Origin: Candidatus Avelusimicrobium cornigerorum
Lineage (GTDB): Bacteria > Elusimicrobiota > Elusimicrobia > Elusimicrobiales > Elusimicrobiaceae
Length of the DNA: 64,000 nucleotides
Assembly (NCBI GenBank): GCA_002309715.1
Contig: DBXW01000005.1
Coordinates: 321,613-385,612 of the forward strand
Direction of reading: 5' to 3'
Positions 12,768-46,104 of the stretch are shown piece by piece (positions within the stretch are counted from its first letter, which is position 1; the number at the start of each line of letters is the position of its first letter). The position numbers and the translations under genes were made by a program. The notes beneath the pieces were generated by a model. It saw nothing but the letters and a program-made list of their open reading frames with translations, had not been told where the DNA came from and did not search any database.

Positions 12768-13784
12768 TTATTTTTTTTCTTTCTGCGAATATACTTCCGA
12801 TAGAGCTACTAATAATTCTTTCTTTTGCGTAAATTTACTCTCATTTTCTGAAATTTTTTTTCTCTTTGCATCGCTCGAAAGGAGATAATGTGCCAATCTA
12901 TGACAAGTGGGGCATAGCGTGACTAAATCGTCAACAGAAGTAATAATCAGCTCATCAGTAGTATATAATGGAGTTAAATGATGGGCTTCTGTAATTTTAT
13001 TTTGATATTGAAAGGCGCATTTGGGATTTTGGCACGTATACTTATCTATTTCTTTGCGTCGTGTAACAATTTTACTATTGCGTTTACGTGAGAGGATTCT
13101 AATTTCTTTACGTTCATTTTCTTCTCTCTTGAGTATTTCCCTTTGTTGTTCTCTTGAAATTTTTTTTCGTTCTTCTTCTGAAAAATTACTTCGATATTTG
13201 CTCCAAATTTCTTCACTTATTTTTAAGCATTCTTTGAAATTTTTGATATTCTTCTTTTTGAAAATAAATCTTTGAATTGCCGCATAGGATTTAATGTTTT
13301 CTGAAACATACTCATTTAAGGCTTCTTTTTTAAATACTGCGAGAATGGTGGTTTTTTTTATGTTTTGATAATGGAATGCAATTTTCCATTTGTACGATGC
13401 CCCTAGATCGATTTTATCAATTTTTTCTAATTCATTGTTTTGTGCAAATAGAATAATATTAATAATGTTTTGTTTTACCGTAGCAAAGGCAGATTCTGGA
13501 GAATTTCCATATTTGCTATACCAAGCATACTTGTCAGTATAGGTATATCCTTGTTTTTTATGTTCAGTTCCTATTTTTTGAGGATCTCGTTCATATACTC
13601 CAAATTTGAAAGAACTTCCACCCCAAATACTTCCCAATAATTCTAATCTTTTTTCAATCCAATAGGTGAATGAATTTTTATTACCAACGCATGTATATTG
13701 TTGAAGTGTCATGCTTTTTATTTTTTCTATAGGCCATTGTTTTTGAAATTCTAAAAATAATTCTTTTAGTGATTCTTCTTGCAT
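12768..13784 (-). CDS. HNH endonuclease with an McrB-N-like domain; putative modification-dependent restriction nuclease
   Basis: CQNPKC..EAHH..LVTLCPTCH HNH core; N-terminal WPIEKIKSMTL..SFTYWIE..GSIWGGSSFKFG; AT-rich. Confidence 0.7.
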   Translation of the reverse strand: MQEESLKELFLEFQKQWPIEKIKSMTLQQYTCVGNKNSFTYWIEKRLELLGSIWGGSSFKFGVYERDPQKIGTEHKKQGYTYTDKYAWYSKYGNSPESAFATVKQNIINIILFAQNNELEKIDKIDLGASYKWKIAFHYQNIKKTTILAVFKKEALNEYVSENIKSYAAIQRFIFKKKNIKNFKECLKISEEIWSKYRSNFSEEERKKISREQQREILKREENERKEIRILSRKRNSKIVTRRKEIDKYTCQNPKCAFQYQNKITEAHHLTPLYTTDELIITSVDDLVTLCPTCHRLAHYLLSSDAKRKKISENESKFTQKKELLVALSEVYSQKEKK

Positions 13785-13854: not shown

Positions 13855-14052
13855 TTATTTCCTCATACAGAACATGCTGTGGCTTGTCGATTCTACAAAG
13901 CATTCGATGTCGCCCAAATCGTAGCGGGCAATATTCGCTCCGGCGTATTGGGTAATCGTTTTAACTTGTTCCATTTTGATTTGGATTTGTGCCGCACCAT
14001 ATCCTACTCCGGCGGCCACAAGTAAGGCCAAAATTAAATAAATTTTCTTCAT
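13855..14052 (-). CDS. Small secreted/membrane protein
   Basis: MKKIYLILALLVAAG signal peptide; start overlaps the WYL stop (ATGA). Confidence 0.65.
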   Translation of the reverse strand: MKKIYLILALLVAAGVGYGAAQIQIKMEQVKTITQYAGANIARYDLGDIECFVESTSHSMFCMRK

Positions 14053-14969
14053 TTTACACTCCTTAAATAATCGTTTAAAACATCTTTTACACGTTTATGC
14101 ATAGACGTGGGAGAAATTACCTTAATATGCGGTAGCCAATGCAAAATGGTGGGGAGTATTTCTTCCTCTTTGGCGGCTTTGCACGAGAGGATTATGCGCC
14201 CGTCTTTGAGTTCCTTTTCTAGCTTTTGCAACGGAAAATAGTTTTTTTGTTTAAAGAAATGCGCGCACTCGGCCGATACTTCTAACTGCACCGATAAGGG
14301 GCGTTCCTTTTCAAACCATACATTCGTACTTTCTCGCAGGATTTTATCTATATTTTTATCGTATTTGAATGGTTTATTTGTGGCTTTGGCTGATGTAATT
14401 TTTTCCAAACGGAATTTAAGGAGTTTGTCATCAGTGGTAAGAGCCAAAAGATACCAAAAACCTTCCACCCACATTAACTTAAGCGGACGCATTAAATAGT
14501 CGGCCATTTTACCGCCCTTGTAGCATATTGTTACCCACTCACGCTCACGTACACATTCTTCCAAAGTGCGCGTAATAGGCGTATCTTTATACATTTCTCC
14601 GCTGTTCATTTTGATAAAGAAAGGGTTATCTTGCGGAGCGGCCAATAAGCGGTTTTTAAGCATGGCAAATGAATGACCGAAATTACCACCTAACGAGGAC
14701 GCCATATCACTCATAAGTACCAAAATAGATGCCTCGGCACTAGACAACTTCATTCGTTCTAACGAAAACCCTTCTTCAAATGCGTATACACCGGGATCAG
14801 GGTTCCACAGCGGGAAGTTGGCTTCTTGTATATCATTCATATCCCGCTGAATAGTGCGTACCGCTACACCAACTTCTGCCGCCATGTCTTTTAGGCGGAT
14901 GGCCCCCTTATCCAGGGCGTTAAGTTCATACAAAAGGCGAGTCAGTTTGTTGTGCATTTCTTTTTGCAT
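14049..14969 (-). CDS. wHTH-WYL-WCX transcriptional regulator (YafY/PafBC/DriD-like)
   Basis: GVAVRTIQRDM HTH; PLKL..GFWYLLA..KFRLEKI WYL domain; C-terminal WCX. Confidence 0.92.
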   Translation of the reverse strand: MQKEMHNKLTRLLYELNALDKGAIRLKDMAAEVGVAVRTIQRDMNDIQEANFPLWNPDPGVYAFEEGFSLERMKLSSAEASILVLMSDMASSLGGNFGHSFAMLKNRLLAAPQDNPFFIKMNSGEMYKDTPITRTLEECVREREWVTICYKGGKMADYLMRPLKLMWVEGFWYLLALTTDDKLLKFRLEKITSAKATNKPFKYDKNIDKILRESTNVWFEKERPLSVQLEVSAECAHFFKQKNYFPLQKLEKELKDGRIILSCKAAKEEEILPTILHWLPHIKVISPTSMHKRVKDVLNDYLRSVK

Positions 14970-15112: not shown

Positions 15113-15162
15113 AGTATAGCACATAGCAGCGACAAGGTGTTGTCGCAACAGTTTGTTATTCT
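15113..15162. promoter_or_regulatory. WYL box site 2, a symmetric bidirectional promoter
   Basis: GCGACA-AGGTGT-TGTCGC (15129-46); TATTCT 10 bp to the right and minus-strand TATACT 10 bp to the left, both preceded by TGn. Confidence 0.82.
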
Positions 15163-15195
15163 AATCCTATGACGAATAAGGAAATGGAGTGCATT

Positions 15196-15636
15196 ATGCA
15201 GTTTAGTTTGTTTAAGTATTTTGACGCTATCTTGGACGGTGCAGAGCAAAACGGTCTGGCGGCGCTGGAACAACCGGAGGTAAAGAAAGCGCTTGCGGAA
15301 CTAGACAGTTTTTTGCCGCCTTTGTCCGACGTAGCCAAACTGGTGTTTAGTTATTACTATGTGTACCAGTTAAAGCCCCAGCCGTTGTTCATTTCGCAAC
15401 TTGAAAAGGACCTCAATGCGCCAACGCTATATTTGGAACACGAGAAAGTATGGCAAGAACTGGTGGATTTGGATTTATTGGTGCGGGTAATGGGGAGTGA
15501 ATATCTCATGCCGCGTAGCGTAATAGATGCGGTAGCGGTCATTGATTTGGAGTATTATTGGCCCAACGACCGCGTGATTATTGCGCCCGAGCATAAGAAA
15601 GAAGTATTTTGGCGGTGGATACATGGCCAAAAATGA
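15196..15636 (+). CDS. Hypothetical protein
   Basis: GGAG RBS before ATG 15196; first gene after WYL site 2. Confidence 0.7.
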   Translation: MQFSLFKYFDAILDGAEQNGLAALEQPEVKKALAELDSFLPPLSDVAKLVFSYYYVYQLKPQPLFISQLEKDLNAPTLYLEHEKVWQELVDLDLLVRVMGSEYLMPRSVIDAVAVIDLEYYWPNDRVIIAPEHKKEVFWRWIHGQK

Positions 15637-16504
15637 AATAATTTACGTGGCTAAACCCACTCGGTACACGGAGCAGACATACCCCGGACACACGAAATTT
15701 TATGAGCATTTTGTGTCGCAGTTGAGAGAATATCACGAAGTGCGCGCGCTGGAACTACCCGATATATGGGTGCGAGATTTTCTACCTGTGCAAAATGTGC
15801 AAACCGGAGAGCTATACCAACTCTTTTTTGACCCGCGCTATGCCAATTATACGCCTAAATTTACGGCGGCTATCCGCGAACAGGTACGGGGTGCTTTCCC
15901 GCGTGTTAAACCGTGTAATGTGCGTATAGACGGGGGAAATATCGTGCTGTCCCCTGGCAAAAAACGGGCATTTTGCTTGGAAAAACAAACGATTTTCCAT
16001 AAATCAAACCCCGGGCAAAAGGAACACGCGGAGCAAGAATTAAAGCGTGCGCTCGGTGTGCAGGAAATTTTATGGCTACCACAGCAAAAAGGCGACAAAA
16101 TCGGCCATATAGACGGGTATATCCAGTTTTTGGGAGATAATCTCATGGAAGGTGCGACAAACATTTTTGACGGAGATATTGCCCTTGAAACGTTGCTTGA
16201 TGATAAATCTAGCAATTTGTTAGCTAGTTTTCATCATTTTAAGACGGTGCCTTTGTTATGCCGGATAGACGAAAATAATTGGCTAAGTGCTAAAGGCCTT
16301 TACGTGAACTTTTTGGAAACGTCCCGCGCCGTTTTTGTGCCACAATTTAATTTGCCCGAAGATGACAAAATTGTTACTATAATGAAAAAGCACATCCATA
16401 AGCCGCTTGTGCGCGTGGATTGTGAACAAATATCGCAGTACGGCGGTGCGGTGCATTGTTTAACGAGGGAATATGAAAGATCAACAGTTGAAAAATATTT
16501 TTGA
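15623..16504 (+). CDS. Agmatine/peptidyl-arginine deiminase family protein
   Basis: WVRD, DGGN, GHIDG and GGAVHC catalytic motifs. Confidence 0.88.
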   Translation: MAKNEIIYVAKPTRYTEQTYPGHTKFYEHFVSQLREYHEVRALELPDIWVRDFLPVQNVQTGELYQLFFDPRYANYTPKFTAAIREQVRGAFPRVKPCNVRIDGGNIVLSPGKKRAFCLEKQTIFHKSNPGQKEHAEQELKRALGVQEILWLPQQKGDKIGHIDGYIQFLGDNLMEGATNIFDGDIALETLLDDKSSNLLASFHHFKTVPLLCRIDENNWLSAKGLYVNFLETSRAVFVPQFNLPEDDKIVTIMKKHIHKPLVRVDCEQISQYGGAVHCLTREYERSTVEKYF

Positions 16505-16952
16505 AGATGCCTTAAGACATGAATTAAGGCCGGCAGTCCAAAAGAAATTGGCGCAGTTGTATCCTGATATTAAATATGAATATTTTGAAAAGGAAGTACG
16601 ACGAATCGGTAAATTACGCAACAAAAAAAAAGGATTTAAGGATTTTGTGAGTTGGTATCTAGAACGTTGGGAAGCTGATGGAAGTGCTGTTTGCAAATAC
16701 TGCGGCATTAGTGAAAAAGAATGTGCGGAAATTTTACAACCGCTTACCAAACGGGCTAAAACGCGCAGCCAGCATTTAGAGATAGAACAGAAGAGCGCTA
16801 ATGATGGTTATAGTGAGAATAACTGTATTTTAGCATGTTATGTTTGTAACAATGCCAAAAGTGATTTTATGAGCGAGGATGAGTTTAAAAAACTTATTCC
16901 GGGTATCCAAGCGTTTTGGAAAAGTCAACGGGAAAAGAAAAAGCAAAATTAG
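16473..16952 (+). CDS. Small HNH-like zinc-binding endonuclease
   Basis: CKYCG..LEIEQK..GYSENNCILACYVCNNAKSD. Confidence 0.75.
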   Translation: MKDQQLKNIFEDALRHELRPAVQKKLAQLYPDIKYEYFEKEVRRIGKLRNKKKGFKDFVSWYLERWEADGSAVCKYCGISEKECAEILQPLTKRAKTRSQHLEIEQKSANDGYSENNCILACYVCNNAKSDFMSEDEFKKLIPGIQAFWKSQREKKKQN

Positions 16953-16976: not shown

Positions 16977-17008
16977 AAAAGACCTAGGTTTTGGCCTAGG
17001 TCTTTTTT
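16977..17008 (+). terminator. Intrinsic terminator
   Basis: AAAAGACCTAGG / CCTAGGTCTTTT followed by a T-run. Confidence 0.75.
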
Positions 17009-29255: not shown

Positions 29256-29894
29256 ATGCAATTACAAAATAAAAGCCCATACAGTGCTTCTATGACAGGT
29301 TGTGGTTTCATGTTAGAAGAAATGAACCGTATCCTGCCGTTACTTATGGACCCAGCTTCAGACACCTTGTTGAAAAAGGAAGTTGTTGAAAATTCCTACT
29401 TAATGATCAATACAGAAAACACCAGAAAAAGAGCGGTGGTCGAACTTGTAAAAAGATATCAGTCTGTACCACAAGAATTTTGGAAAGAATATTTGTCTTT
29501 TTCCAAAGAGGCTCAGTGTGTAGCTATGTATTTTGTAAATTTAAAGTGTTATCGTCTCTTTTTTGATTTGCATTTAAATCTTGTTCTTAAGAAATGGCAT
29601 TCTATTCGCCAAACATTGACTAGAACGGATGTATTGATGGAAATAAATGCAATTGCTACCCAAGATGATTTCGTAGATAGTTGGAGTGATAATACGAAAA
29701 TCAAAGTGGCAAGTGCCTTCCTGTCTTTTCTACGTAAAGTTAAATTTTTGGAACCAAATGGGGAACAACTTAAGCCGATTTCTTTGACTGATGAAGAATT
29801 TGCATTTTATTTGAAAATACGAGAAAATTGGTTCTTGGAAGCTTGTCTCCTGCAGCCGTATGAAATTGAGCGTATTACAAAGGTGCTTGTATGA
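29256..29894 (+). CDS. brxA: BREX BrxA (DUF1819)
   Basis: YSASMTG.. family pattern; first gene of the BREX operon. Confidence 0.8.
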   Translation: MQLQNKSPYSASMTGCGFMLEEMNRILPLLMDPASDTLLKKEVVENSYLMINTENTRKRAVVELVKRYQSVPQEFWKEYLSFSKEAQCVAMYFVNLKCYRLFFDLHLNLVLKKWHSIRQTLTRTDVLMEINAIATQDDFVDSWSDNTKIKVASAFLSFLRKVKFLEPNGEQLKPISLTDEEFAFYLKIRENWFLEACLLQPYEIERITKVLV

Positions 29895-30499
29895 AAAATA
29901 TGAGTTTAAAAGAATTGGAAGAAAAATTGCGTAGCAATGAGTTCCAAAATACAGAAAATGATATTTTTTATAATTTTTTTATCTATCTGTATGATCCGGC
30001 TGATGAATATATAATGCGAGCACAGATACGTGAGTTTAAACAAAATCTTTTGCGTCCTGTTGATTATGTAGATGTTTTAACAATAGATATTTTCGAGGAA
30101 CTATGTAATTTTTTGAATAATCAACCGTACGGTAATTTTAATTCATCTTTATTGCAATATTTGCTTGAAAAAGATAAAGATGATCATGAAGCGGTGCTTC
30201 GACTATTAACAGGAAAAGCTAATTGTTCGGAATTCTATAAATATCTTGATAAGCACATTAAAGAACACATCAGTATTAGTGACGACAAAAAGCGGCCCTA
30301 TGTATTTTTATATGGACTAGGAAAAATTTTCCCGTATATGAGAATAAGTACGTTGTTGGCTAATTACGAGCAATACAACAAAAGCAGTCGTTATAAAATA
30401 ATTGTATTTTATCCCGGGAATAAAGAAGGTAATAATTACCGACTTTTTAACATTTTGGAAGATCATCATACATATCGTGCAACTTTAATGAATGGGTAA
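29891..30499 (+). CDS. brxB: BREX BrxB (DUF1788)
   Basis: FFIYLYDP..; GLGKIFPYMR; IIVFYPG. Confidence 0.82.
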   Translation: MKNMSLKELEEKLRSNEFQNTENDIFYNFFIYLYDPADEYIMRAQIREFKQNLLRPVDYVDVLTIDIFEELCNFLNNQPYGNFNSSLLQYLLEKDKDDHEAVLRLLTGKANCSEFYKYLDKHIKEHISISDDKKRPYVFLYGLGKIFPYMRISTLLANYEQYNKSSRYKIIVFYPGNKEGNNYRLFNILEDHHTYRATLMNG

Positions 30500-30504
30500 A
30501 TCAT

Positions 30505-33500
30505 ATGAAATTGGAAGAAATATATCTTAAGGACATTACAAGAGCTGTTAATCCTGCGGTATCTGCTAGCGATTTGGCTGAAGAAACTGCAAAAATCGAA
30601 ATAGATGAATATGTGTTTACAGATGAAATTGTAAATAGCCTGTATAAGATTTTGTCGGCCATCCGGAAACGTCAGTTAAGTCATAATGGAATTTGGATTA
30701 ATGGATATTTTGGCACTGGGAAATCTCATTTTTTGAAATATTTGGACTATTGTTTAGATACGCGTTTCCAAGAGAAAGCTTTAGGACGCTTGGAAGAAGC
30801 TGTCAAAGATTTAGATCCTTTTAAGAATCCTACGAATAATTTAGATGTTTCTGTTAGTGAGATGCACGATCTGGTTTCATGGATTAAATCAGCAAAAGTA
30901 GATACCATTTTGTTTAACATTGGCACAGTGAATAATATTCGAGGAAATGAGCAATGTGTCTTTTTGGATGCCTTTTGGCATGAATTTAATTCATTTAGAG
31001 GATATAATCGCTCAAATTTGGCATTAGCTCGTTATTTTGAAAAAGTGTTGGATGAAAAGGGAAAATTTCTTGAATTCAAACAACAGATAAAAAAACAATT
31101 GGGGTTAAATTGGGAACAAAGCGGAGCTGATTTAGCTATTACAGAATTAGATACCGTACTTAAAATAGGCAAAGGAGTCGTTCCATCTTTATCAATTGAT
31201 TCCATTAAGAAAAGAATTGAAGATGATGATGCATTGGTCAGCGTAGAAAGTTTCTGCGAAGAATTAAAACAATATCTTCAAGAAAAAGATGATAAATACC
31301 GCTTGATTTTTCTTGTAGATGAAATCAGTCAATTTATAGACGCCCGTCGAGGATTATTACTTCAGCTACAGGAGATTGTTACACGTTTGCATGAGAAGTG
31401 TAACGATAAGATATGGATTGCGGCTACTGCACAACAGGACTTACAAGAAATTCTTGAAAGTTGTCAAATTAATGCGACCAGCGAAGACTATGGAAAAATC
31501 ATGGGACGCTTCGAAGTCAAAGTTTCATTGACGGGCACCAAGTCTGAGTATATTACTCAAAAGCGTATTTTAGATAAAAACGGAGCAGCGGCTATAAAAC
31601 TTGGGGAGCTCTATGATAAAAAGCGTAATGCGATCGCGGCTCAATTTCAATTGCCGCCTTCTTATAATGCGTTTGCAAATAAGGATGAATTTATAAAATT
31701 CTATCCTTTTGTGCCTTATCAATTCCGATTAATTGAGCAGGTCTTTAACTCCTTCGAGCGTTTGGACTTTGTAGATAGAGAAGTGAAAGGAAATGAAAGA
31801 TCTATTATCAAGGTTACGCACAGTACAGCTAAAAAGGCAAAAGATTGGCCTGTAGGAAGCTTTATTCCATTTGACTCCTTCTTTGGTCCAATGTTTAAGG
31901 GAGCTCTTGTCGCTAAAGGACAAAGAGCAATAAGAAATGCCAATAATGTGATTGCCGAATATTCAGATAAAGAAATGGGGCAAAGGGTGGTTAATATCTT
32001 GTTTATGGTCTGTAACTTATCGCAGAATGATAAGCTCCTATTCCCCGCAACGGTTGATAATATTACATGTTTGCTCATGAATGATGTGGATACTCAAAAA
32101 TTGACCTTAAAAGAAAATGTACAAAAGGCTTTGGACTATTTGATGGATAGAAATATTATCAGAACCGAAGTTTCAAAGTCAGGAATGGTGTCTTATGCGT
32201 TCTATAGTGAAGATGAAAGCGAAGTAGCCTCTTTGATTAAAAATCAAAATATAGATAATAATACGATGGCAGAGGAATTGAAGGAATTGTTTATTAATTA
32301 TATCACTCCCCAGCCGCGAGAAACTTTTGAATCCAGTAAATTCACAATAGGTGCTAGCATTATGGAAAAAAATTTCTTGAGTAATAATGCAGATATCACC
32401 TTAAATTTTGTTATGGAATCTGCGGAAGATTCTGCTGAGCAATTTGCATTTACCAATACTCCCAAAGTCTTAGCATTTTTCATGGCGGAGGAGTATAAGA
32501 ATCAGAAAGAATTACGAAATAAGTTTTATTGGTATTGTCAGGCCCAGACATATTTAAGAAATAATCGTGCAACCAGTGAGGAACGAGCTAAAACTTTGCA
32601 AGAGTTTAAGCAACGTGCTGCCGATTTATATAGAAGCAAAATTGAAAAGGGATTTCGTGATTTGTTTGATAAAAGCACAGTAATATCCGGTACTACAGTA
32701 TTAGACATAGGAGCCAATAAAGGAAAAACTCGTTACGAAATGGCTTTAAAAAAGCACTTCCAAAATGTGTTTCCGCAGGCTTCTTTAGTTGCTGATTTGC
32801 CGGTTACTTCTACTGATTTGAATCGAGAAATATTGCAACCTAGTAAAAATGTTCAGCTTACGCCTGTTTCAGAAGCTGAACAGCGGGTAAAGGACTATTT
32901 GATTAAACATCAGCCGGAAGTAAATGTAAATGATATTGTGCAGAACTTTGCAGCTGCTCCATATGGGTGGAGTGAAATATGTACACTCGCTATTCTTAAC
33001 CTACTCGTATTAAGAAATGAATATATGTTTCTGTACAACAATAATCCACATGTGGAAAGACAAGTGGTTGCTCAAAAAATATGTAAAGAAAAACAAAAAT
33101 TCACAATTAGAACAGCAGAGAAAATATCGCAAGAGCTTATTAACAACTTTATAAATAGCTGGCGTACCATTTATAACAAAGTAGCTACTTTTGTACCCGA
33201 AATGGATCCTCGTACAATTTACGAAGAAGCGCAGTCTCAATTAGCTAACGAGGAATCTGCTTTGGATGATGTGTATAGGAAGATTCGGGATTATCCCTTT
33301 GGCAAAACAGTGCAAGATTTACGTCAATTAGTGGATACATGGCGGCAGAAACGTGATATACAAGAATTCTTTAAGCAGATTATTGCTGACGCGGCGCAGG
33401 CCCAGCAATTAGAAGATAAGTATAAGCAAATTGTTGAATTTTGTGCCGATCAGTTTGCTCGCTATCAAGAGTATTTGCAATTTATCCGGGATAATGAGGC

Positions 33501-33999
33501 CAATTTCGAGCAACTAAGTGGTTGCGAAAAGGCAGTAAATGCCATGTTGGCACTTAAACAAAATGCATGGCCGATAGATGATATGCCTAGTTATAAAAAA
33601 TTGCGTGACGAGTTGCAAACGCAATTGGAACAGGTAAAAAAATCTCTTCGTCAACAGATTGCGGATGCTTATACGCACGAGATTGAGCAGTTGCATTCGT
33701 TAGCCGAGGAAAACCAGGTGCCATATAATAAAACCGCTAACGATGTTATTGCGGATAAAACTAAATCGGATAATATTCTCGTTTTAAAGAATGTGTTAAA
33801 TGAAAAGAGTTCCTTCTATCAAGAGGAATTGGATTCTATCTTAAATCACGGGAATAAAGGTGTTGTTAAATTCGTTAAGTTAAATACACGTAATTCTACC
33901 CCTATTACGAATGAAAAAGAAGTGGATGCCTATTTAAATCAATTAAAAGGGCAGTTAATGGAACACATTTCCAAAGGGGATAAGATAATCATTTCGTAA
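30505..33999 (+). CDS. brxC: BREX P-loop ATPase BrxC
   Basis: GYFGTGKS Walker A; FLVDEISQF; YPFVPYQF. Confidence 0.92.
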   Translation: MKLEEIYLKDITRAVNPAVSASDLAEETAKIEIDEYVFTDEIVNSLYKILSAIRKRQLSHNGIWINGYFGTGKSHFLKYLDYCLDTRFQEKALGRLEEAVKDLDPFKNPTNNLDVSVSEMHDLVSWIKSAKVDTILFNIGTVNNIRGNEQCVFLDAFWHEFNSFRGYNRSNLALARYFEKVLDEKGKFLEFKQQIKKQLGLNWEQSGADLAITELDTVLKIGKGVVPSLSIDSIKKRIEDDDALVSVESFCEELKQYLQEKDDKYRLIFLVDEISQFIDARRGLLLQLQEIVTRLHEKCNDKIWIAATAQQDLQEILESCQINATSEDYGKIMGRFEVKVSLTGTKSEYITQKRILDKNGAAAIKLGELYDKKRNAIAAQFQLPPSYNAFANKDEFIKFYPFVPYQFRLIEQVFNSFERLDFVDREVKGNERSIIKVTHSTAKKAKDWPVGSFIPFDSFFGPMFKGALVAKGQRAIRNANNVIAEYSDKEMGQRVVNILFMVCNLSQNDKLLFPATVDNITCLLMNDVDTQKLTLKENVQKALDYLMDRNIIRTEVSKSGMVSYAFYSEDESEVASLIKNQNIDNNTMAEELKELFINYITPQPRETFESSKFTIGASIMEKNFLSNNADITLNFVMESAEDSAEQFAFTNTPKVLAFFMAEEYKNQKELRNKFYWYCQAQTYLRNNRATSEERAKTLQEFKQRAADLYRSKIEKGFRDLFDKSTVISGTTVLDIGANKGKTRYEMALKKHFQNVFPQASLVADLPVTSTDLNREILQPSKNVQLTPVSEAEQRVKDYLIKHQPEVNVNDIVQNFAAAPYGWSEICTLAILNLLVLRNEYMFLYNNNPHVERQVVAQKICKEKQKFTIRTAEKISQELINNFINSWRTIYNKVATFVPEMDPRTIYEEAQSQLANEESALDDVYRKIRDYPFGKTVQDLRQLVDTWRQKRDIQEFFKQIIADAAQAQQLEDKYKQIVEFCADQFARYQEYLQFIRDNEANFEQLSGCEKAVNAMLALKQNAWPIDDMPSYKKLRDELQTQLEQVKKSLRQQIADAYTHEIEQLHSLAEENQVPYNKTANDVIADKTKSDNILVLKNVLNEKSSFYQEELDSILNHGNKGVVKFVKLNTRNSTPITNEKEVDAYLNQLKGQLMEHISKGDKIIIS

Positions 34000-34003
34000 A
34001 ATT

Positions 34004-37000
34004 ATGGAAACTAGCCAAATAAAGAAATTCGCTCAACAAGCAAGAACAATATTAAAACAAGGAATACAAAATAAAATATCTTCCTTGGGTTTTGATGCTA
34101 GCGGTCATGTGCCGGCAGATAAAATGCCCATAAAGGGGCAAGATCATGTTGTATTCATGGGGCAAGTTATTGAAGATGTTTCCTTTTACGATAAATGGCA
34201 GTCGTTGTATACCCATGTAACAGAAAAGGGTATTGCACAGGTATGCGAGGAAGCAGCTTACACTTGGTTTAACCGCCTCGTGGCTATTCGTATTTTAATG
34301 AAAAATAACCTGATAGAGCCTGTTTTAGCGTATCCCAATCCATCTTTACGTATTCCACGCATTGTAGCAGATGCCCGTCGCGGTATTTACCCACAAATGA
34401 CAGCCTACGACCGCAAACAACTTAATCAATTGCTAGATGATGATACCAAAACAACGGAACAATTTGGGTTGCTGATAGTGAATTATTGCCGAAATAACCC
34501 TGTGTTAGCGGCTTGTTTTGGGGATATTAATGACTATACAGAATTACTATTGCCTATTAACATTTTAGCGGCAAATGGTTTTGTGGATTTGCTTAACAAC
34601 ACTACTTTTATTACGGATGAAGATTATAAACAGAGTGAACTGATAGGCTGGCTGTATCAGTTTTATATTTCCGAGAAGAAAGATGAGGTTTTTGCTTCTA
34701 AACAAAAACGTAAACCGGAAGATATTCCGGCAGCTACCCAAATTTTCACGCCAAATTGGATTGTAAAATACATGGTTCAGAATACGTTGGGGCGAATCTA
34801 TTTAGACAATAATCCCAACGCACAGAGTATCAAATCCCAAATGAAATATTTGGTGGAACCGGGTGCTCCCAGCCCTGAAGAGTTGATTTTCCATTATACA
34901 GATGTACATCAACTGACAATTGCCGATTTAGCGTGCGGATCGGGCCACATATTAAACGAAGCTTTTGATTTGTTGCTTTCCATTTACATTGAGGAAGGAT
35001 ATAATCGCCGCCAGGCCATTAAGGAGATTTTTGAATATAATCTATTGGGAATAGATTTGGATACACGGGCCAAACAGCTGGCCATGTTTGCACTCTTGTT
35101 AAAAGCATGTCAAAAAGATAAATCCTTTTTAGATGCCCAAACATTGCCCCGTGTATTGGATATGCATGTAGCGGACCTTGTAATTGAACTTAATGCTAAA
35201 GCCAATTTGTCAACTATATTGAACGAATTTTTTGCCGGAGCGAATGAGACCACCCTCAAGGAAACAATGGTGGCTCTGAAATTGCTTGAACAAGGGAAGA
35301 ATTTGGGCTCTATTATGCGGTTTGAACTATCGGACTCCACCCGTGCGGCTATTGCTATGCGGTACCAAGAATGGAAAGGAAAAATCGTTAATCGGGAAAT
35401 AAAAATACTTTTATCCGCTTTTGAAGTAATATTGGCTTTGACGGATAAGTATGCCACTTTGGTAATGAATCCACCATACATGCATAGTAGCGATATGAAT
35501 GTGGATCTTTCCAAGTATGTTAAAGAAAACTATTCTGACGGAAAAGCTGACCTATTTTCCGTATTCATGCTCCTTTCTAACAATTTATTGGCTCGGAAGG
35601 GGAAATATGGCATGATAAGTATGCAAGGATGGATGTTTTTATCTTCATTTGAAAAATTACGCAGTTCCTTGCTTACACAACAACATATAGATAATTTGCT
35701 TCATCTCGGTCCGCGTACTTTTGATGAATTATCCGGAGAAGTGGTGCAAAATGTGGCTTTTGTTGTTAGTAAAAATAAATATTCCGCAAGTGGTATCTAT
35801 TACCGTCTTGTAGACGGCAAAAATTGTTCTGATAAAGAAAGGATGTTTTTAAATGCTGAAAATCTTAAAGGGGTATATTATCCTAATGTTAATCAGAAAA
35901 ATTTTGAAAAAATACCCGGTTGCCCGTTGGGGTATTGGGTTAAATCAACCGTTTGGCAAATGTATGACACCAATCCAACTATTGGAGAGATTGCTCAACC
36001 AAAAGTTGGAATGCAAACATCAAACAATGACAAATATTTACGTCTTTGGTTTGAGATAACATTTAATGAATTTAATGGAACAAGCACAGGATTAAAATGG
36101 ATAAAATATCTTAAAGGTGGAACTTTTAGAAGATGGTACGGAAACATGGAGCACCTTCTTTGGTATAACAAAACCCCATCATTTGTATTACAACAAGATA
36201 ATGCAAGAGTTTTGGAATTAGATTTCTTGGAAAAAAGGAAATGCACATGGAGTGATATCACTTCGGGGAAAAATGCATTTAGATTTGCTCCGGCAGACAC
36301 ATTCTATGATATATCAGGTCATTGCTATTTCCCATCTAAAGATAATCAATACTGGACTTTAGGCGCTGTTAATACTCCCGTTTTCCATTTGTTAAAAAAA
36401 GTTTTTAATTCAACATATCATTGTCAATGTGGTGATGTTGCTAAATATGTGTTGCCGACATTGAAAGAGGATGAAAAACAAATAATTTCAGATCTTGTTA
36501 AGCAAAATATTTTCGTCAGTAGAATTGATTGGGATGCTCATGAAACTTCTTGGGATTTCCAAGAGAATGAATTGTTACGTTTGAGCAAGGAACATCCTGC
36601 CTATTCTTTGGAAAAACTGACGGAAGAGTATCAAAAATACTGGGCAGATAAGTTTTTAACACTTCATAAAAACGAAGAAGAACTCAATCGCCAATTTATT
36701 GATATTTACGGCTTGCAGGACGAACTGACACCGGATGTGCCATTAGATGAGGTAACCATTCTTCAACAAGGTGAGATTACCATAGAAAATAATGAGTTAA
36801 AGTGGAACAAAGACGAAATTGTAAAACAACTTATATCGTATGCAGTAGGTTGTATGATGGGGCGTTACCGCTTAGATAAACCGGGATTGCACATTGCACA
36901 TCCCAACCCAATAGACGAAGAAATATCTACCTATTCTTATAACGGCCAATCGTTTAGTATAGACAAAGATGCTATTCTGCCATTAATGACGCGGGATAGT

Positions 37001-37525
37001 GCCTTCTCTGACAATGCCACTGAATGCTTTAAGCGTTTTCTTAAAGTGGCGTTTGGAGCCGAAAACCTAACGGGAAATCTTAATTTTATAGAATCTGTTC
37101 TCGGTAAAGATATAGAAACCTATTTTGTGAAGGACTTTTGGAAAGATCACTTAAAACGTTACCAAAATAGGCCCATTTACTGGTTATTCCGTTCCGATAA
37201 GGGGGCTTTCCAATGTTTAGTGTATATGCACCGCATGAACCCATATACAGCGGAGCAAGTGCGTACGCGCTATTTATTGCCACATATAGAATATTTAACT
37301 ACCCGCCTGGCAGAATTAGAAAGCCGTGCCGCTGAATTGAACAGCCGTGAACGCCGCTTAAAAACTAAGTTTGAAAAAGATTTAGTGGAATGCCAAGAGT
37401 ACCACGATCGCTTACATCGAGTGGCCGATAGACAGATTGCATTTGATTTGGATGACGGCGTAGTGGTAAATTATGCCAAATTTGAAGATGTACTTGCTAA
37501 AATAAAAAAAGCAGAGAAGAAATAA
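34004..37525 (+). CDS. pglX: BREX-1 adenine methyltransferase PglX (BrxX)
   Basis: AYTWFNRL, IPAATQIFTP, DLACGSGH, NPPY, RPIYW, DLDDGVVVNY. Confidence 0.95.
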   Translation: METSQIKKFAQQARTILKQGIQNKISSLGFDASGHVPADKMPIKGQDHVVFMGQVIEDVSFYDKWQSLYTHVTEKGIAQVCEEAAYTWFNRLVAIRILMKNNLIEPVLAYPNPSLRIPRIVADARRGIYPQMTAYDRKQLNQLLDDDTKTTEQFGLLIVNYCRNNPVLAACFGDINDYTELLLPINILAANGFVDLLNNTTFITDEDYKQSELIGWLYQFYISEKKDEVFASKQKRKPEDIPAATQIFTPNWIVKYMVQNTLGRIYLDNNPNAQSIKSQMKYLVEPGAPSPEELIFHYTDVHQLTIADLACGSGHILNEAFDLLLSIYIEEGYNRRQAIKEIFEYNLLGIDLDTRAKQLAMFALLLKACQKDKSFLDAQTLPRVLDMHVADLVIELNAKANLSTILNEFFAGANETTLKETMVALKLLEQGKNLGSIMRFELSDSTRAAIAMRYQEWKGKIVNREIKILLSAFEVILALTDKYATLVMNPPYMHSSDMNVDLSKYVKENYSDGKADLFSVFMLLSNNLLARKGKYGMISMQGWMFLSSFEKLRSSLLTQQHIDNLLHLGPRTFDELSGEVVQNVAFVVSKNKYSASGIYYRLVDGKNCSDKERMFLNAENLKGVYYPNVNQKNFEKIPGCPLGYWVKSTVWQMYDTNPTIGEIAQPKVGMQTSNNDKYLRLWFEITFNEFNGTSTGLKWIKYLKGGTFRRWYGNMEHLLWYNKTPSFVLQQDNARVLELDFLEKRKCTWSDITSGKNAFRFAPADTFYDISGHCYFPSKDNQYWTLGAVNTPVFHLLKKVFNSTYHCQCGDVAKYVLPTLKEDEKQIISDLVKQNIFVSRIDWDAHETSWDFQENELLRLSKEHPAYSLEKLTEEYQKYWADKFLTLHKNEEELNRQFIDIYGLQDELTPDVPLDEVTILQQGEITIENNELKWNKDEIVKQLISYAVGCMMGRYRLDKPGLHIAHPNPIDEEISTYSYNGQSFSIDKDAILPLMTRDSAFSDNATECFKRFLKVAFGAENLTGNLNFIESVLGKDIETYFVKDFWKDHLKRYQNRPIYWLFRSDKGAFQCLVYMHRMNPYTAEQVRTRYLLPHIEYLTTRLAELESRAAELNSRERRLKTKFEKDLVECQEYHDRLHRVADRQIAFDLDDGVVVNYAKFEDVLAKIKKAEKK

Positions 37526-37528
37526 ACC

Positions 37529-40054
37529 ATGAGTATTCAAACGAATATATATAACTATTTTGACAGGAATCCCGAATTAAAGGTTCTTTTTGTATTTGAC
37601 CCTATGATCTGTGCTGAATTGACAGAGGCCGAATGGCAAAATGGCTATAAAGCTATTTTTTTTGACGGCGCGTGGTTTAGGACCAAATATGCATTGGAAC
37701 ATGATTGGAAGGATCTAAAAGTAATATTATTGTTTGATTTTATTCGTCCCAGCAATTTGAGTAAGTTCCCGCTTGCCGGTGAGTTGGCTGCTAATATGGA
37801 GTATAAAGCGGAGGATTACGAGGCTTTCCTGCAACAATATAGACTAAGTGCCGAAAAATTCGGTTCCTATGTCCGGCGACATATTGGCGAACTACAATTA
37901 TCCAAAATAGACAAAATTTTGCACGATTATTATACTTCAGATGCCTTTAGCATAGATGTGGCTAATAGAGGGTTTATTTGCGCCTATATGGGGGAGAGCA
38001 AGTTGCTTGAATGGAATGAGATTATTATCCGTCTTATGATGCTTGCCCTACCGGAAGATAAAAGGAAAGAAACCAGTTTTTATGTGGCTTTGTGTAAAAA
38101 CCAGGATGCCAAAGATGCCCTACAAGAACAACTAAAGAGAATTTTTAATCTTTCGTATGAGGAAAATTCCCTTTCTAAAATGAAGAAAATAGTGGAGTGC
38201 TTTAAGTATAATCTGATAACCTCCAATTTGGTGGCTGTTGCCTCTGACAACTACAAAGATTATAAGATTACTAATTCCGTACAATTGGAATCTATGCAAA
38301 AGTTGCTTTCGACCGGGTTAAATCAACTGCCGGCCAAACGAGGAAGATTTTTGCAGGTTTTGGATGTTGTGGGTGCAGATATACATGTGGAAGAGATTGT
38401 TCGTGCCTATGGAATAGAAGCAGATTTCTTTTATGTGCCCGATTCTCTTTGTATTCAAATTGTTCAAAAGGCACTGGAAGATATTTCTGTGACGGATTCT
38501 ATGCTTTTACAAGACAAAATGCGAAACTTGCTACTACAACAGCAAGAATCATCGCTTGTGCCGGCTATAGAATATGTGATTAGACTGATAAAATATTATG
38601 ATAAACGCAAACAGATAACATCTTTTGTGAAATCCACCCCACAGGAGTACATTAAACTTTATCAAGAAGAATATTATTTGTTAGATATGTACTACCGGCA
38701 GAGTTTGGAATATTATTTTCAAATAAATGTAGAAAATGAGTCTTTTAATGAAAGTTTATCTTCCGCTAAAAGAGATTTAGATGCAGATTATGCCTATTAT
38801 TGTCAGGAATTAAACAGAGAGTGGCTAAGATGTTGGAGTGAGAAAGGGAACACTTATAAATCATTGGGAATAGTACCTAAACAACAGGATATTTATACCC
38901 AAGAACGCAATCCGGGGGTAAAACAAGTTTTTATTATAAGTGATGCATTCCGTTATGAACTAGCGGTAGAGTTGTTAAATCGTGAGCTATCCCAAGAAAA
39001 AAATATAGCAGAATTACATTATGCCGTTGCAATGTTGCCCACTGAAACGAAATATACTAAGCCGGCACTTTTGCCTCATCAAACCCTTGAACTACAGGGG
39101 GCAGATATGGTGGTAGATGGGCAAGTTCTCAATACAGTAACCAAACGGATGCAGCATCTAAACAAATATGTTAACGGGGCTGTATGTGTTGATTACAACG
39201 ACTGGGATCAAAAAACCAGAGAAGAAAAGCGAGAAATTTGTAAGAATCCTCTTGTATATATTTTTCACAATACTCTCGATAAGGGTGGTCATGATGCCAC
39301 TGCTAGAGAATTAACGAGGACTTGCCAAGAAGCTATTGCGCAACTTAGAGACCTGATTACAAAATTACATTCCACTATGCATGTGACGGATGTGGTATTA
39401 ACCGCCGACCATGGCTTTCTTTATAATGATATCGTGTTTGCCGACAAAGACAAACAAATTGTAACTGAAAATGTATTGGAACAGAAAACCCGTTATTATT
39501 TGACAACGTCTAATGTTCCTATTATGAATGTAGTAAAATTCCCATTAAACGAAGTATCAGCCATGAAAGGGGATTGTTATGTAGCGGTTCCTTTTGGAAC
39601 TAATCGTTTTAATGCTCCCGGTGGTGGGTATGATTTTGCTCATGGAGGGGTTTCGTTGCAAGAGATGATTATCCCGGTTCTTCACAGCAAGCATAAACGA
39701 GTAGAGACCAAAGAAAAAGTAGGAGTGACATTGATTTCTACGGATTTGAAGATGGTTTCTAGTAGTTTGAAATTTCAAATTATTCAAAGTGATGTGGTAT
39801 CTATGGAAAAAACACCACGTCATATTGTATGTGCTGTTTATGTTAATGACAAACCTGTCACAACATTAAAAAAACTATTCCTAAATAGTACGGATTCAAC
39901 GCCTGCTAGTCGTATTTTGGAAGTGGAGCTTGTTCTCAATACATCTGTTAATACTAGTATCATGGAGCTGCGTATTTATGATGAAAATGATATGCTTAAT
40001 CCTCTGATCAAACAGAATGTAAAGAATAACACTTTGATAGAGAGAGATTTTTAG
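37529..40054 (+). CDS. pglZ: BREX PglZ (BrxZ) alkaline-phosphatase-fold protein
   Basis: IISDAFRYE, LPTET, TADHGF, FAHGG. Confidence 0.93.
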   Translation: MSIQTNIYNYFDRNPELKVLFVFDPMICAELTEAEWQNGYKAIFFDGAWFRTKYALEHDWKDLKVILLFDFIRPSNLSKFPLAGELAANMEYKAEDYEAFLQQYRLSAEKFGSYVRRHIGELQLSKIDKILHDYYTSDAFSIDVANRGFICAYMGESKLLEWNEIIIRLMMLALPEDKRKETSFYVALCKNQDAKDALQEQLKRIFNLSYEENSLSKMKKIVECFKYNLITSNLVAVASDNYKDYKITNSVQLESMQKLLSTGLNQLPAKRGRFLQVLDVVGADIHVEEIVRAYGIEADFFYVPDSLCIQIVQKALEDISVTDSMLLQDKMRNLLLQQQESSLVPAIEYVIRLIKYYDKRKQITSFVKSTPQEYIKLYQEEYYLLDMYYRQSLEYYFQINVENESFNESLSSAKRDLDADYAYYCQELNREWLRCWSEKGNTYKSLGIVPKQQDIYTQERNPGVKQVFIISDAFRYELAVELLNRELSQEKNIAELHYAVAMLPTETKYTKPALLPHQTLELQGADMVVDGQVLNTVTKRMQHLNKYVNGAVCVDYNDWDQKTREEKREICKNPLVYIFHNTLDKGGHDATARELTRTCQEAIAQLRDLITKLHSTMHVTDVVLTADHGFLYNDIVFADKDKQIVTENVLEQKTRYYLTTSNVPIMNVVKFPLNEVSAMKGDCYVAVPFGTNRFNAPGGGYDFAHGGVSLQEMIIPVLHSKHKRVETKEKVGVTLISTDLKMVSSSLKFQIIQSDVVSMEKTPRHIVCAVYVNDKPVTTLKKLFLNSTDSTPASRILEVELVLNTSVNTSIMELRIYDENDMLNPLIKQNVKNNTLIERDF

Positions 40055-40062
40055 GAGATTAT

Positions 40063-42117
40063 ATGCCATTACAAGAAAAAATAATGAAGTGTTTTGATGG
40101 AAAAGTGGTTCGCAAAGATTTGGCTTTTTTAATAAAAGGTGGACTGCCTGTCCCTACGTTTGTATTGGAGTATTTATTAAGTCAGTACTGCGCCAGTGAC
40201 GATGAACAGGTTATTAAAGAGGGAGTGGAACAGGTAAAACAGATAATACAGGAAAATTATGTCCATAGAGCCGATGCTGAGGCGGTCAAAGGTAAGATCC
40301 ATGATTGTGGTAAATATAAAATTATTGATAAAGTAAATGTTTTTTTAAATGAAAAATCAGACGAATATCAAGCATCTTTTGCTAACTTAGGCTTATCAGG
40401 AGTCCCAATAGGGGCAAAATACGTGCAAGAAAATCCAAAATTACTTTCTGGAAATGGAGTATGGTGTATTGTTTCATTAGGATACATAAGTGGGGAAGAT
40501 GTACGTGTTCGTTGGGATATTCAGACATTAAAGCCAATTCAAATTTCTAATATCGATTTGGAATATTATATTGCTCAAAGAAAGAATTTTACTACCGAAG
40601 AATGGATTGATTTTCTAATCCATACAATGGGATTAAATCCAGAAGAATTAAATAGAAGGGAAAAGTTTATTACGTTAGCTCGTCTTTTACCTTTTGTAGA
40701 AAATAACTTTAATTTTGTAGAACTTGGGCCTAAGGGAACCGGAAAATCTCATGTTTTCCAAGATTTGTCACCGAATGGGGTGCTAGTTAGTGGTGGAGAT
40801 GTGACGAGTGCTCGATTGTTCGTTAAAATGAGCGGTAATCGCGAAATCCTTGGGTTAGTTGGGTATTGGGATCTTGTGGCTTGGGACGAATTTGAACAAC
40901 AAAAAGGGCGTTCCATAGATGCGGTTCTTATAGATACAATGCAAAACTATCTTGCCAATAAGGCATTTAACAGAGGAAAGTCGACGCATGAAGCGAGTGC
41001 TTCAATGGTTTTTGTCGGTAATACGAAGCATACTGTTCCTTACATGTTAAAAAATACTCATTTGTTTGAATCTATTCCCGTTGCATTTATTAAAGGAGCT
41101 TTCTTAGATCGTATTCATTTGTATAATCCCGGTTGGGAAATAAGAATGCTGAAAAAAGGAAGTTTTTCTCATGGGTATGGTCTAATTACAGATTATATTG
41201 CTGCAGTACTTCATGAATTTAGAAATCAAGATTTAACCAATTGGCTCCAAAAATATGCTAAATTTGACTCGTCGCTATCGGAAAGAGATCATTTAGCAAT
41301 CCGTAAAACATTTTCTGGAATGATAAAATTATTGTATCCCGATGGTAATATTACTGATGAAGAGGCCTATGAATTGGTAGATTTTGCCGCGGAAGGACGT
41401 AAGCGTGTAAAAGAGCAACTTTATATTATAGATGGGACATTTAAATTGGAACCGGCAGTATTCCAATATATTAATTTGAAAAGCGGAGAGAAAACAGAAA
41501 TAGAAACATTAGAATGTGTTAATTTTGAGCATTCTACCCCGTTGGTATTGCCTTCGAATCAAAAGTCCGAAATAGGACAAAAAGAGCAAGAATCTAAAGT
41601 TCCTAATGCGGAAAAGAAAAAAATAGTATTGCAAGAAAAACGATTACCTGTGCGTATGGGGCAAACAGGCATTTCGTACGAGACACTATTTGCTGATTAT
41701 TTAAAAGGAGCCAACAAAATCGTTATAGAAGACCCCTATATTCGAACATTTTGGCAGATAAAAAATTTAGTAGAATTTTTCTCTATGCTTGAAAAGACAC
41801 GCCCGGTCGAGGGGCTTGACGTCCATTTAATTACCACGAAAGATGAGACTGAAGAGAAGATAAATAGATTGCTGGAGGATTTGGAAGCAATAAAATCAGA
41901 TGTGAGTAATGTAGGTATAAATTTTACTTATGAATTCAATGAATTCCACGATAGATGTATTAAAACAGATACTGGATGGATTATTTCATTAGGAAGAGGA
42001 TTAGATATTTTCGAGCCCTGTGATAAATTCTCTTTAAGTGCTTTGGATCAAAAACGTCGTAAATGTAAGGATTTTAGTGTCATTTACTCTCAAGGAGACC
42101 CTGACAAATTGCCCTAA
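40063..42117 (+). CDS. brxL: BrxL with a C-terminal PLD/HKD-like (MIT_C-type) domain instead of Lon protease
   Basis: VVRKDL, ELGPKGTGKS; C-terminal EDPYIR..FHDR..TDTGW..GRGLD. Confidence 0.9.
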   Translation: MPLQEKIMKCFDGKVVRKDLAFLIKGGLPVPTFVLEYLLSQYCASDDEQVIKEGVEQVKQIIQENYVHRADAEAVKGKIHDCGKYKIIDKVNVFLNEKSDEYQASFANLGLSGVPIGAKYVQENPKLLSGNGVWCIVSLGYISGEDVRVRWDIQTLKPIQISNIDLEYYIAQRKNFTTEEWIDFLIHTMGLNPEELNRREKFITLARLLPFVENNFNFVELGPKGTGKSHVFQDLSPNGVLVSGGDVTSARLFVKMSGNREILGLVGYWDLVAWDEFEQQKGRSIDAVLIDTMQNYLANKAFNRGKSTHEASASMVFVGNTKHTVPYMLKNTHLFESIPVAFIKGAFLDRIHLYNPGWEIRMLKKGSFSHGYGLITDYIAAVLHEFRNQDLTNWLQKYAKFDSSLSERDHLAIRKTFSGMIKLLYPDGNITDEEAYELVDFAAEGRKRVKEQLYIIDGTFKLEPAVFQYINLKSGEKTEIETLECVNFEHSTPLVLPSNQKSEIGQKEQESKVPNAEKKKIVLQEKRLPVRMGQTGISYETLFADYLKGANKIVIEDPYIRTFWQIKNLVEFFSMLEKTRPVEGLDVHLITTKDETEEKINRLLEDLEAIKSDVSNVGINFTYEFNEFHDRCIKTDTGWIISLGRGLDIFEPCDKFSLSALDQKRRKCKDFSVIYSQGDPDKLP

Positions 42118-45960: not shown

Positions 45961-46071
45961 CCAAAAGACCTAAACAACAATAGGTCTTTTGGTTATTTTA
46001 GACAAGGGCTAAAGACCTAACTCAAATTAGGTCTTTTGGCCGTTGCGGCCCAATTTCATTATGTTTACAAT
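45961..46071 (+). promoter_or_regulatory. Two AAAGACCTA-N8-TAGGTCTTT palindromes and a sigma70 promoter
   Basis: Palindromes at 45961-92 and 46011-36; TTGCGG (46043), 17 bp, TACAAT (46066). Confidence 0.7.
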
Positions 46072-46104
46072 GGGGGTATAAGGGAGTTTTTTAGGAGCGA
46101 TGAT

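Follow-up and report, generated by a model that had tools for sequence, protein, structure and literature searches.

Penteins hydrolyse guanidines and amidines, and in one of them, the Medicago agmatine deiminase MtAIH, Trp91 and Trp125 shape the agmatine tunnel while a gate loop closes it (PMC6447857). The restriction enzyme R.PacI, from group 20 of the His-Me finger nucleases, has a loop Tyr in place of the catalytic His and no methyltransferase (PMC5714182). In the Brig3-BapA system a glucosyl hydrolase (BapA) tailors bases and so widens the range of a 5-hydroxymethylcytosine (5hmC) glycosylase (Brig3), which also works alone (10.64898/2026.02.25.707755). Most homologues of the Dag defence glycosylases failed to protect against the dG+ phage 9g (10.1101/2025.10.29.685425); dG+ is a known phage base (PMC10516641). 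We describe here an operon encoding a pentein deiminase and a PacI-like nuclease. It lies in a 64,000-nucleotide stretch of Candidatus Avelusimicrobium cornigerorum (contig DBXW01000005.1, positions 321,613 to 385,612 of the forward strand), hereafter the window, and comprises three genes:

15196-15636, + strand: ORF1 (open reading frame 1), 146 aa, a fold without assignment; an alternative ATG lies at 15169
15623-16504, + strand: short pentein (PAD_porph) deiminase, 293 aa, assigned by Pfam, structure model and alignments
16473-16952, + strand: PacI-like His-Me finger nuclease (HNH), 159 aa, assigned by a PacI profile match

Judged from gene neighbourhoods, the deiminase and an adjacent effector appear to form a real, previously undescribed and widespread module, present in several bacterial phyla and with a putative mechanism. 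Its version in the window would consist of a PF04371 member that is not AguA and a member of the PacI-like group. Our literature searches found no description of a deiminase acting with a glycosylase or HNH protein in defence, although subscription papers and bioRxiv supplements (the Dag and Brig3 tables) fell largely outside their reach.

The short pentein deiminase

The deiminase is the sole PF04371 gene of the genome and scores 89.4 bits against a cut-off of 25 (E=3.5e-25). The GHIDG and GGAVHC motifs noted in an earlier, sequence-only reading of this DNA are both present. Its structure model (predicted local distance difference test, pLDDT, 95.5) has the propeller fold and is closest to agmatine deiminases, with Z 26.7 to 1zbr (root-mean-square deviation, rmsd, 2.9; 274 residues aligned) and 26.6 to 6nic. 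Residues W49, D52, D158, H162, D164 and C279 are retained. Among 80 diverse relatives D52, D164 and C279 are invariant and H162 nearly so, and because these four residues are conserved the enzyme is probably catalytically active. Profile, fold and Cys-His-Asp triad all place it among the PAD_porph penteins.

That it might be a plain agmatine deiminase, one of the outcomes named in the sequence-only reading as counting against it, is contradicted by the family models. On TIGR03380, the AguA equivalog, it scores 42.9 bits where the cut-off is 381.8. In 118 loci of the short clade neither the PxE[WF] N-terminus nor the FNxWG loop was found (0/118 for each), while FxPxY occurs in 111 and DGGN in 117; the corresponding figures for 25 canonical AguA loci are 21/25, 25/25, 0/25 and 0/25. 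The first tunnel Trp is kept as W49, while the second Trp and the Arg of RLxASY are lost, the correspondence with the plant (MtAIH) numbering being only presumed. The tunnel-entrance loop has a net charge of +0.84 in the short clade (the 73 of 80 representatives with the motif) against -1.43 in 23 canonical sequences, a comparison that ignores relatedness. In a quick tree of 143 rows the 23 canonical proteins split from the other 120 with an SH-aLRT of 100, the 120 including three longer, long-branch proteins of unsure placement. The deiminase thus appears not to be an ordinary AguA and belongs to a short clade from which both the N-terminus of AguA and its second tunnel Trp are missing.

The clade is patchily distributed: in the window's genus 21 of 76 genomes have it, and among Bacteroidales genomes 49 of 401 (E<=1e-45). 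A viral scan with the single deiminase protein gave no match. Homologues of 350 aa in the Bacteroides DAC/SJC phages were excluded as module members: they are long-branched, lie beside a portal gene and have no partner. One of them lies in phage SJC03 (L111:7728-8780); these PAD_porph genes near the portal gene of large Bacteroides phages are annotated as hypothetical.

We consider it unlikely that the enzyme acts on free agmatine, whether as an ordinary deiminase or by draining polyamine precursors during infection. The closest solved structures are indeed agmatine deiminases, with W49, D52 and D158 retained, and two pyruvoyl arginine decarboxylases of the genome should make agmatine available. 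One of the two decarboxylase genes, however, stands in an operon with an agmatinase gene. The absence of a nearby N-carbamoylputrescine amidase, already remarked from the sequence, extends to the whole genome (98.5% complete), where PF00795 was matched only in frames of 543 and 641 aa; PF00185 (ornithine carbamoyltransferase) had no match in the genome, nor did the pyridoxal phosphate-dependent decarboxylases of the two families tested. With a decarboxylase-agmatinase operon and neither a stand-alone CN-hydrolase nor an ornithine carbamoyltransferase, agmatine is already routed and the product of the deiminase would have no next step. A CN-hydrolase adjoins none of the short-clade loci examined, including 30 held-out Bacteroidales loci, but lies within 500 bp in 20 of 24 canonical AguA loci; the coupling of AguA to N-carbamoylputrescine amidase or putrescine carbamoyltransferase is therefore missing from this deiminase. 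The TIGR03380 score and the lost FNxWG loop likewise speak against free agmatine, which would also leave the exclusively DNA-acting neighbours of the clade unexplained.

Interchangeable partners of the deiminase

A partner was defined as a PacI-like HNH, an AAG/MPG-fold or a UDG-fold protein encoded within 160 bp, unless stated. The AAG/MPG-like family mostly escapes Pfam, though some members match PF02245, and it folds like human AAG (Z 10.4, rmsd 3.6, 160 residues aligned; Foldseek E=5e-5). The UDG-fold protein is nearest to TIGR04274, under its cut-off; by its name this is a hypoxanthine DNA glycosylase family, concerned with excision of deaminated purines.

Among 45 Elusimicrobiota loci (the window, 38 of 39 from one set and 6 of 20 from another) 28 have a partner: a PacI-like HNH in 10, an MPG-like protein in 17 and a UDG-like protein in 1. 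In two of these loci the partner is encoded on the opposite strand. Five further loci carry an MPG-like gene 542-545 bp away, across ORF1. When the best 80 were taken from 544 metagenome loci, 52 had a partner (45 MPG, 4 UDG, 3 HNH), and six of seven short loci in a 351-genome Bacteroidota sample have an MPG-like neighbour. Since the partner profiles had been built from these sets, a held-out test was run on the 30 best of 53 matches in the 401 Bacteroidales genomes, with two pairs of loci near-identical: 23 of the 30 have a partner within 160 bp (14 MPG, 5 HNH, 4 UDG) and 26 within 500 bp. The 24 canonical AguA control loci, of the Bacteroidota sample, have none. Partners were also found in three of seven viral loci and two of three short plasmid loci, and two Flammeovirga plasmids carry the deiminase together with the same HNH. 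Searching in reverse through 145 family genomes, we found a deiminase within 1.5 kb of 20 of 21 MPG-like loci and abutting 9 of 14 HNH loci.

The link between deiminase and HNH protein proposed in the sequence-only reading is therefore conserved, in Elusimicrobiota, Bacteroidales, the Flammeovirga plasmids and two fusions (P0181 and P0219), but it is not exclusive: HNH is one of three interchangeable partners, the commonest being the AAG/MPG-fold glycosylase. That fold too is fused to PAD_porph, in a 72-member Atlas cluster, and a fragmentary UDG-like/deiminase fusion was found in P0169. Searches with two alignments for longer fused forms returned none, which counts for little since fusions turned up by other routes. 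Exchange of partners is rapid; L081 has HNH and L118 MPG although their deiminases are 97.5% identical, and on the tree the partner type changes at least 16 times among 79 labelled rows, a count made without a shuffle control. No MPG-like gene was found in the window's own genome.

That these genes stand together by chance, as functionally unlinked cargo of a defence hotspot, is very improbable. The cargo of the WYL/AAA/DUF2779 island does vary, and an HNH gene occurs there alone at L254. In other phyla, however, where this island is missing, all three classes of partner turn up again, upstream rather than downstream, as overlapping genes or fused, and the lack of any partner in the control loci has already largely refuted this explanation.

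Several other neighbours deserve mention. An open reading frame directly after the short deiminase at L133:4317-4787 is GIY-YIG-like by eye, without a Pfam match, and may represent a fourth type of partner. A further unnamed domain, some 114 aa long, recurs either as a gene of its own, placed between those for the MPG-like protein and the deiminase, or in fusion with the deiminase, at its N- or C-terminal end (L282:993-1337, L284:1017-1361, P0273, P0266, P0232, P0174). At L200-L202 a short deiminase directly follows a type I hsdR-like gene, and at L200 it also precedes an hsdM-like gene (labels by eye). A Pfam-less protein in the same WYL island (L102:4837-5715, L083:4545-5201) has a K...VPAFD pattern reminiscent of helix-hairpin-helix (HhH) glycosylases.

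The HNH protein of the window gives a weak Pfam match (E=0.0014, below the cut-off). Against R.PacI (3ldy) it scores E=2.3e-8 alone and E=3.4e-15 as a 12-sequence profile, and it aligns with that structure at C74/C77 and C122/C125 (two CxxC), E105, Y113 (Tyr for His) and N126, the hallmarks of the PacI-like group. A PacI-type avoidance of sites was rejected: TTAATTAA occurs 44 times in the host genome against about 42 expected, though the site of this HNH protein may differ. No 8-bp palindrome absent from the host genome was informative. A viral scan with the HNH alignment yielded only two unrelated phage HNH genes. In PADLOC (library of 2023) the deiminases and glycosylase partners had no match and the HNH proteins weak generic ones (E at best 7e-5).

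Operon layout, regulation and genomic setting

The arrangement read from the sequence, three overlapping genes between the second of the WYL sites and a terminator, was confirmed by the coordinates, by the palindrome at 15129 and by the hairpin at 16977-17006. ORF1 and the deiminase gene overlap by 14 bp, the deiminase and HNH genes by 32 bp, and all three are on the + strand. The control elements are:

14049-14969, - strand: regulator with helix-turn-helix (HTH), WYL and WCX domains, divergent from the operon (Pfam WYL, WCX and HTH_11)
15129-15162, + strand: WYL box preceding ORF1, a palindrome (15129-15146) plus a PafBC-type promoter half-site
16977-17006, + strand: intrinsic-terminator-like hairpin of 13 bp with U tail, ending the operon (-18.7 kcal/mol, z=-4.49)

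A simple terminator scan did not pick up this hairpin. The palindrome, GCGACA-N6-TGTCGC, has three copies in the window (10964, 15129 and 17021) against 0.08 expected, and a whole-genome search found none in the rest of the genome. The right arm of the copy at 15129 reads TGTCGC-AACAGTTTGT-TATTCT and, with a spacer of 10 nt, fits the PafBC activator consensus tGTCgg(N10)tA(N3)T (PMC8635444); its left arm gives the equivalent pattern on the - strand, facing the WYL gene. A promoter scan found no sigma-70 site at the 15129 promoter, the motif having no -35. Many relatives carry the PafBC-type pattern upstream of ORF1 or the deiminase, and the WYL protein is probably the activator of the operon. 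The sequencing runs listed for the operon include no RNA run. Each of the three WYL boxes has a PafBC-type half-site and a -10; they precede a DUF2779 nuclease gene, the deiminase operon and a double-AAA ATPase gene.

The PafBC-type motif would suit another explanation, which we find decidedly unlikely, that of a DNA-damage cassette in which the deiminase removes the guanidine of oxidised-guanine lesions (e.g. guanidinohydantoin) or adducts and the glycosylase completes base excision. In its favour, both glycosylase partners (AAG and hypoxanthine-glycosylase) have folds known from repair, L208 is adjoined by an AlkA-like HhH-GPD gene, a gene that is UvrA-like by eye adjoins L141, and guanidinohydantoin lesions are documented (PMC12623156). 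A repair function fits poorly with the patchy distribution within the genus, the fast partner swaps and the plasmid and island locations, and a restriction-type nuclease occupies the same slot as the glycosylases.

ORF1 had no match in Pfam, PADLOC or NCBIfam; its PDB profile search gave nothing usable and its Atlas leads were all below 0.9. It occurs in 19 of the 45 Elusimicrobiota loci and stands directly upstream of the deiminase in some Elusimicrobiaceae only. On the remaining loci its profile detected nothing but L117, a close Elusimicrobiaceae-like metagenome locus, and it was not found in other phyla. Because of this restriction we define the module as deiminase plus effector and regard ORF1 as what appears to be a lineage-limited extra outside the core. 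Homology of ORF1 to the 114-aa domain (Prob 0.1) and to the AAA N-terminus (Prob 1.0) was rejected.

The relatives are Elusimicrobiaceae. In the Elusimicrobiota loci the deiminase is accompanied by WYL in 34/45, AAA in 33/45 and DUF2779 in 24/45. From about 10 to 43 kb the window is a defence island with a DUF2779 nuclease, a PD-T4-1-like HNH protein, an AAA ATPase, PDC-S50/S13/S04, a SIR2-like gene, a recombinase and BREX (bacteriophage exclusion), so that the defence-like context suspected from the sequence is supported. The WYL gene and a 65-aa frame resembling a signal peptide are followed downstream by a gene for a 338-aa HNH protein (12768-13784, - strand) with a PD-T4-1-like N-terminal region, possibly a modification-dependent nuclease. 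A full type 1 BREX system (BrxA, B, C, PglX, PglZ, BrxL; 29256-42117) stands behind a serine recombinase and two DUF2924 genes, and an 1833-aa frame at 46036-51537 has zero Pfam matches. In the genome ATTAAT is strongly depleted, with 53 copies where about 452 would be expected; CATATG is depleted to a lesser degree (63 against 250).

The proposed module and the known systems

We tentatively favour, with slightly less than even confidence, a two-part anti-phage (anti-foreign-DNA) module induced by single-stranded DNA (ssDNA), in which a deiminase serves a DNA-attacking partner. DNA would be the common target because it is all that the three unrelated partner folds share; as partners swap while the deiminase barely changes, coupling would run through a shared substrate rather than a fitted complex. 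The deiminase would use normal pentein chemistry (attack by Cys279, with His162 and Asp52/Asp164) but its substrate would be a macromolecule. The likeliest target is an amidine or guanidine in exocyclic position on a hypermodified base of phage DNA, such as the 7-amidino group carried by dG+, giving an amide (dADG), or an Arg/agmatine-type adduct. Removal of the charged group would turn the DNA into a substrate of the adjacent effector, here the PacI-like nuclease, elsewhere an AAG-fold or UDG-fold glycosylase. The WYL protein would induce the module, with ssDNA as trigger. Directly shown are the catalytic residues, the lost AguA tunnel features, the pairing (conserved, and seen from both directions), the fusions and the folds of the partners; that the module is defensive, that it acts on DNA, which base it would edit and that the WYL protein induces it are inferences. 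That the short penteins in general are DNA-base deiminases, stripping amidine or guanidine groups from such bases or deaminating a purine to a xanthine/hypoxanthine-type base excisable by both glycosylase folds, is possible, though with rather less than even confidence. Direct purine deamination is the bolder idea and chemically harder; it is kept in play because both glycosylase folds excise deaminated purines, as is known of AAG and as the family name of TIGR04274 implies.

Several observations weigh against this account. Our literature searches found no pentein acting on nucleic acid. Nor did they find documentation of an Arg- or agmatine-modified phage base, which leaves that particular substrate speculative. 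The account offers no reason for a PacI-type nuclease to need a tailored base. In mycobacteria, promoters of the PafBC type serve the response to DNA damage. At HNH position 106 the Arg of PacI and most relatives is replaced by Gln, which may weaken the nuclease. The deiminase's own entrance loop is merely +1, and D158 is shared with AguA, where it is presumably the acid that binds the amine of agmatine, so that some caution is called for; a literature search for the residue numbers of the E. faecalis AguA found none. An abutting partner is missing in 17 of 45 Elusimicrobiota, 28 of the 80 best metagenome and 7 of 30 held-out loci. Of those 28, 19 come from a single subclade, most of whose deiminases are fused to an N-terminal domain anchored in the membrane; several of the others are truncated by contig ends. 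The loci are of related genomes, so the counts overstate independence, and linkage within Elusimicrobiaceae is inflated because both genes ride in one WYL/AAA island. Partners also stand without an adjacent deiminase: an HNH gene at L254, an HNH gene at L259 (genome G106) and an intact-looking MPG-like gene at L275 (genome G100), neither of these two genomes being among the deiminase matches listed.

In a subclade that includes L135, L144, L147, L287 and related loci the short deiminase is fused behind a transmembrane helix and a helical domain, and a glycosylase or HNH neighbour is usually absent. GmrSD pairs lie beside some partnerless copies. Broken copies also occur: at L086:3994-4890 and L108 the deiminase is split and has no partner, and at L096/L279 the deiminase is intact but its MPG-like neighbour has decayed.

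The solitary partners also bear on protein-arginine deimination within a defence module, a rather unlikely alternative. Here the enzyme would citrullinate a DNA-binding Arg of its own partner, as an enzymatic antitoxin with one writer and many toxins, or of some DNA-shielding protein of phage or host. Peptides, too, would fit an opened tunnel, and the Porphyromonas gingivalis deiminase PPAD belongs to this family (Z 23.5). Arg102 and Arg162 are invariant in the MPG-like proteins, the two genes overlap in the manner of a toxin-antitoxin pair, and the nuclease has no methyltransferase partner. An intact-looking MPG-like gene at L275 and an HNH gene at L259, with no deiminase among the matches listed for their genomes, and the HNH gene at L254, with none adjacent, argue the other way. 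A single enzyme would moreover need to accept three unrelated folds as substrates, and in the window's HNH protein the metal ligand is followed by Gln instead of Arg.

If, as under the favoured reading, these are conflict genes, a sizeable clade annotated as agmatine deiminase or putrescine biosynthesis is mis-annotated, as the 49 Bacteroidales genomes and the 21 of the window's genus indicate. If the substrate is DNA, the module would offer new pentein chemistry and a route past the dG+-type phage protection mostly missed by known Dag glycosylases; it would also point to phage modifications not yet known and might serve as a reagent for mapping. The deiminase-HNH pair is compact (1.3 kb) and directly testable.

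Compared with AguA/AIH (PF04371, TIGR03380; PDB 2jer, 3hvm, 6nic, 6b10) the window's deiminase shares the pentein fold (Z about 26), the Cys-His-Asp triad and the W-x-R-D and H-x-D motifs. Unlike them, the short proteins are some 50-70 aa shorter, lack the PxEW N-terminus and the RLxASY Arg, have FxPxY for FNxWG and DGGN for EGG, and are patchy, mobile and never beside a CN-hydrolase in the loci examined. PPAD, a secreted enzyme, has the same Pfam family and fold but is longer; the 293-aa deiminase is a single domain with no extra domains and no signal peptide visible by eye. The HNH protein resembles R.PacI in its two CxxC zinc sites, its Tyr for the catalytic His and the lack of a cognate methyltransferase, and differs in being coupled to a deiminase in a host that does not avoid TTAATTAA. 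The Dag glycosylases (10.1101/2025.10.29.685425) and END nucleases (PMC12191111) likewise turn repair-type folds on modified phage DNA, including 7-deazaguanines, but they are single-gene systems without a deiminase, and the main text on Dag does not mention AAG/MPG; a deiminase-type helper could fill the dG+ gap of the Dag glycosylases. The nearest parallel in proposed logic is Brig3-BapA, likewise a base-tailoring hydrolase plus a DNA-damaging effector that can stand alone, and a glycosylase acting by itself fits the partners found alone. Since the folds differ, the module is not a member of that system by descent: its putative helper is a pentein and its effector any of three folds. If the favoured reading holds, it would be a counterpart of Brig3-BapA made from different parts.
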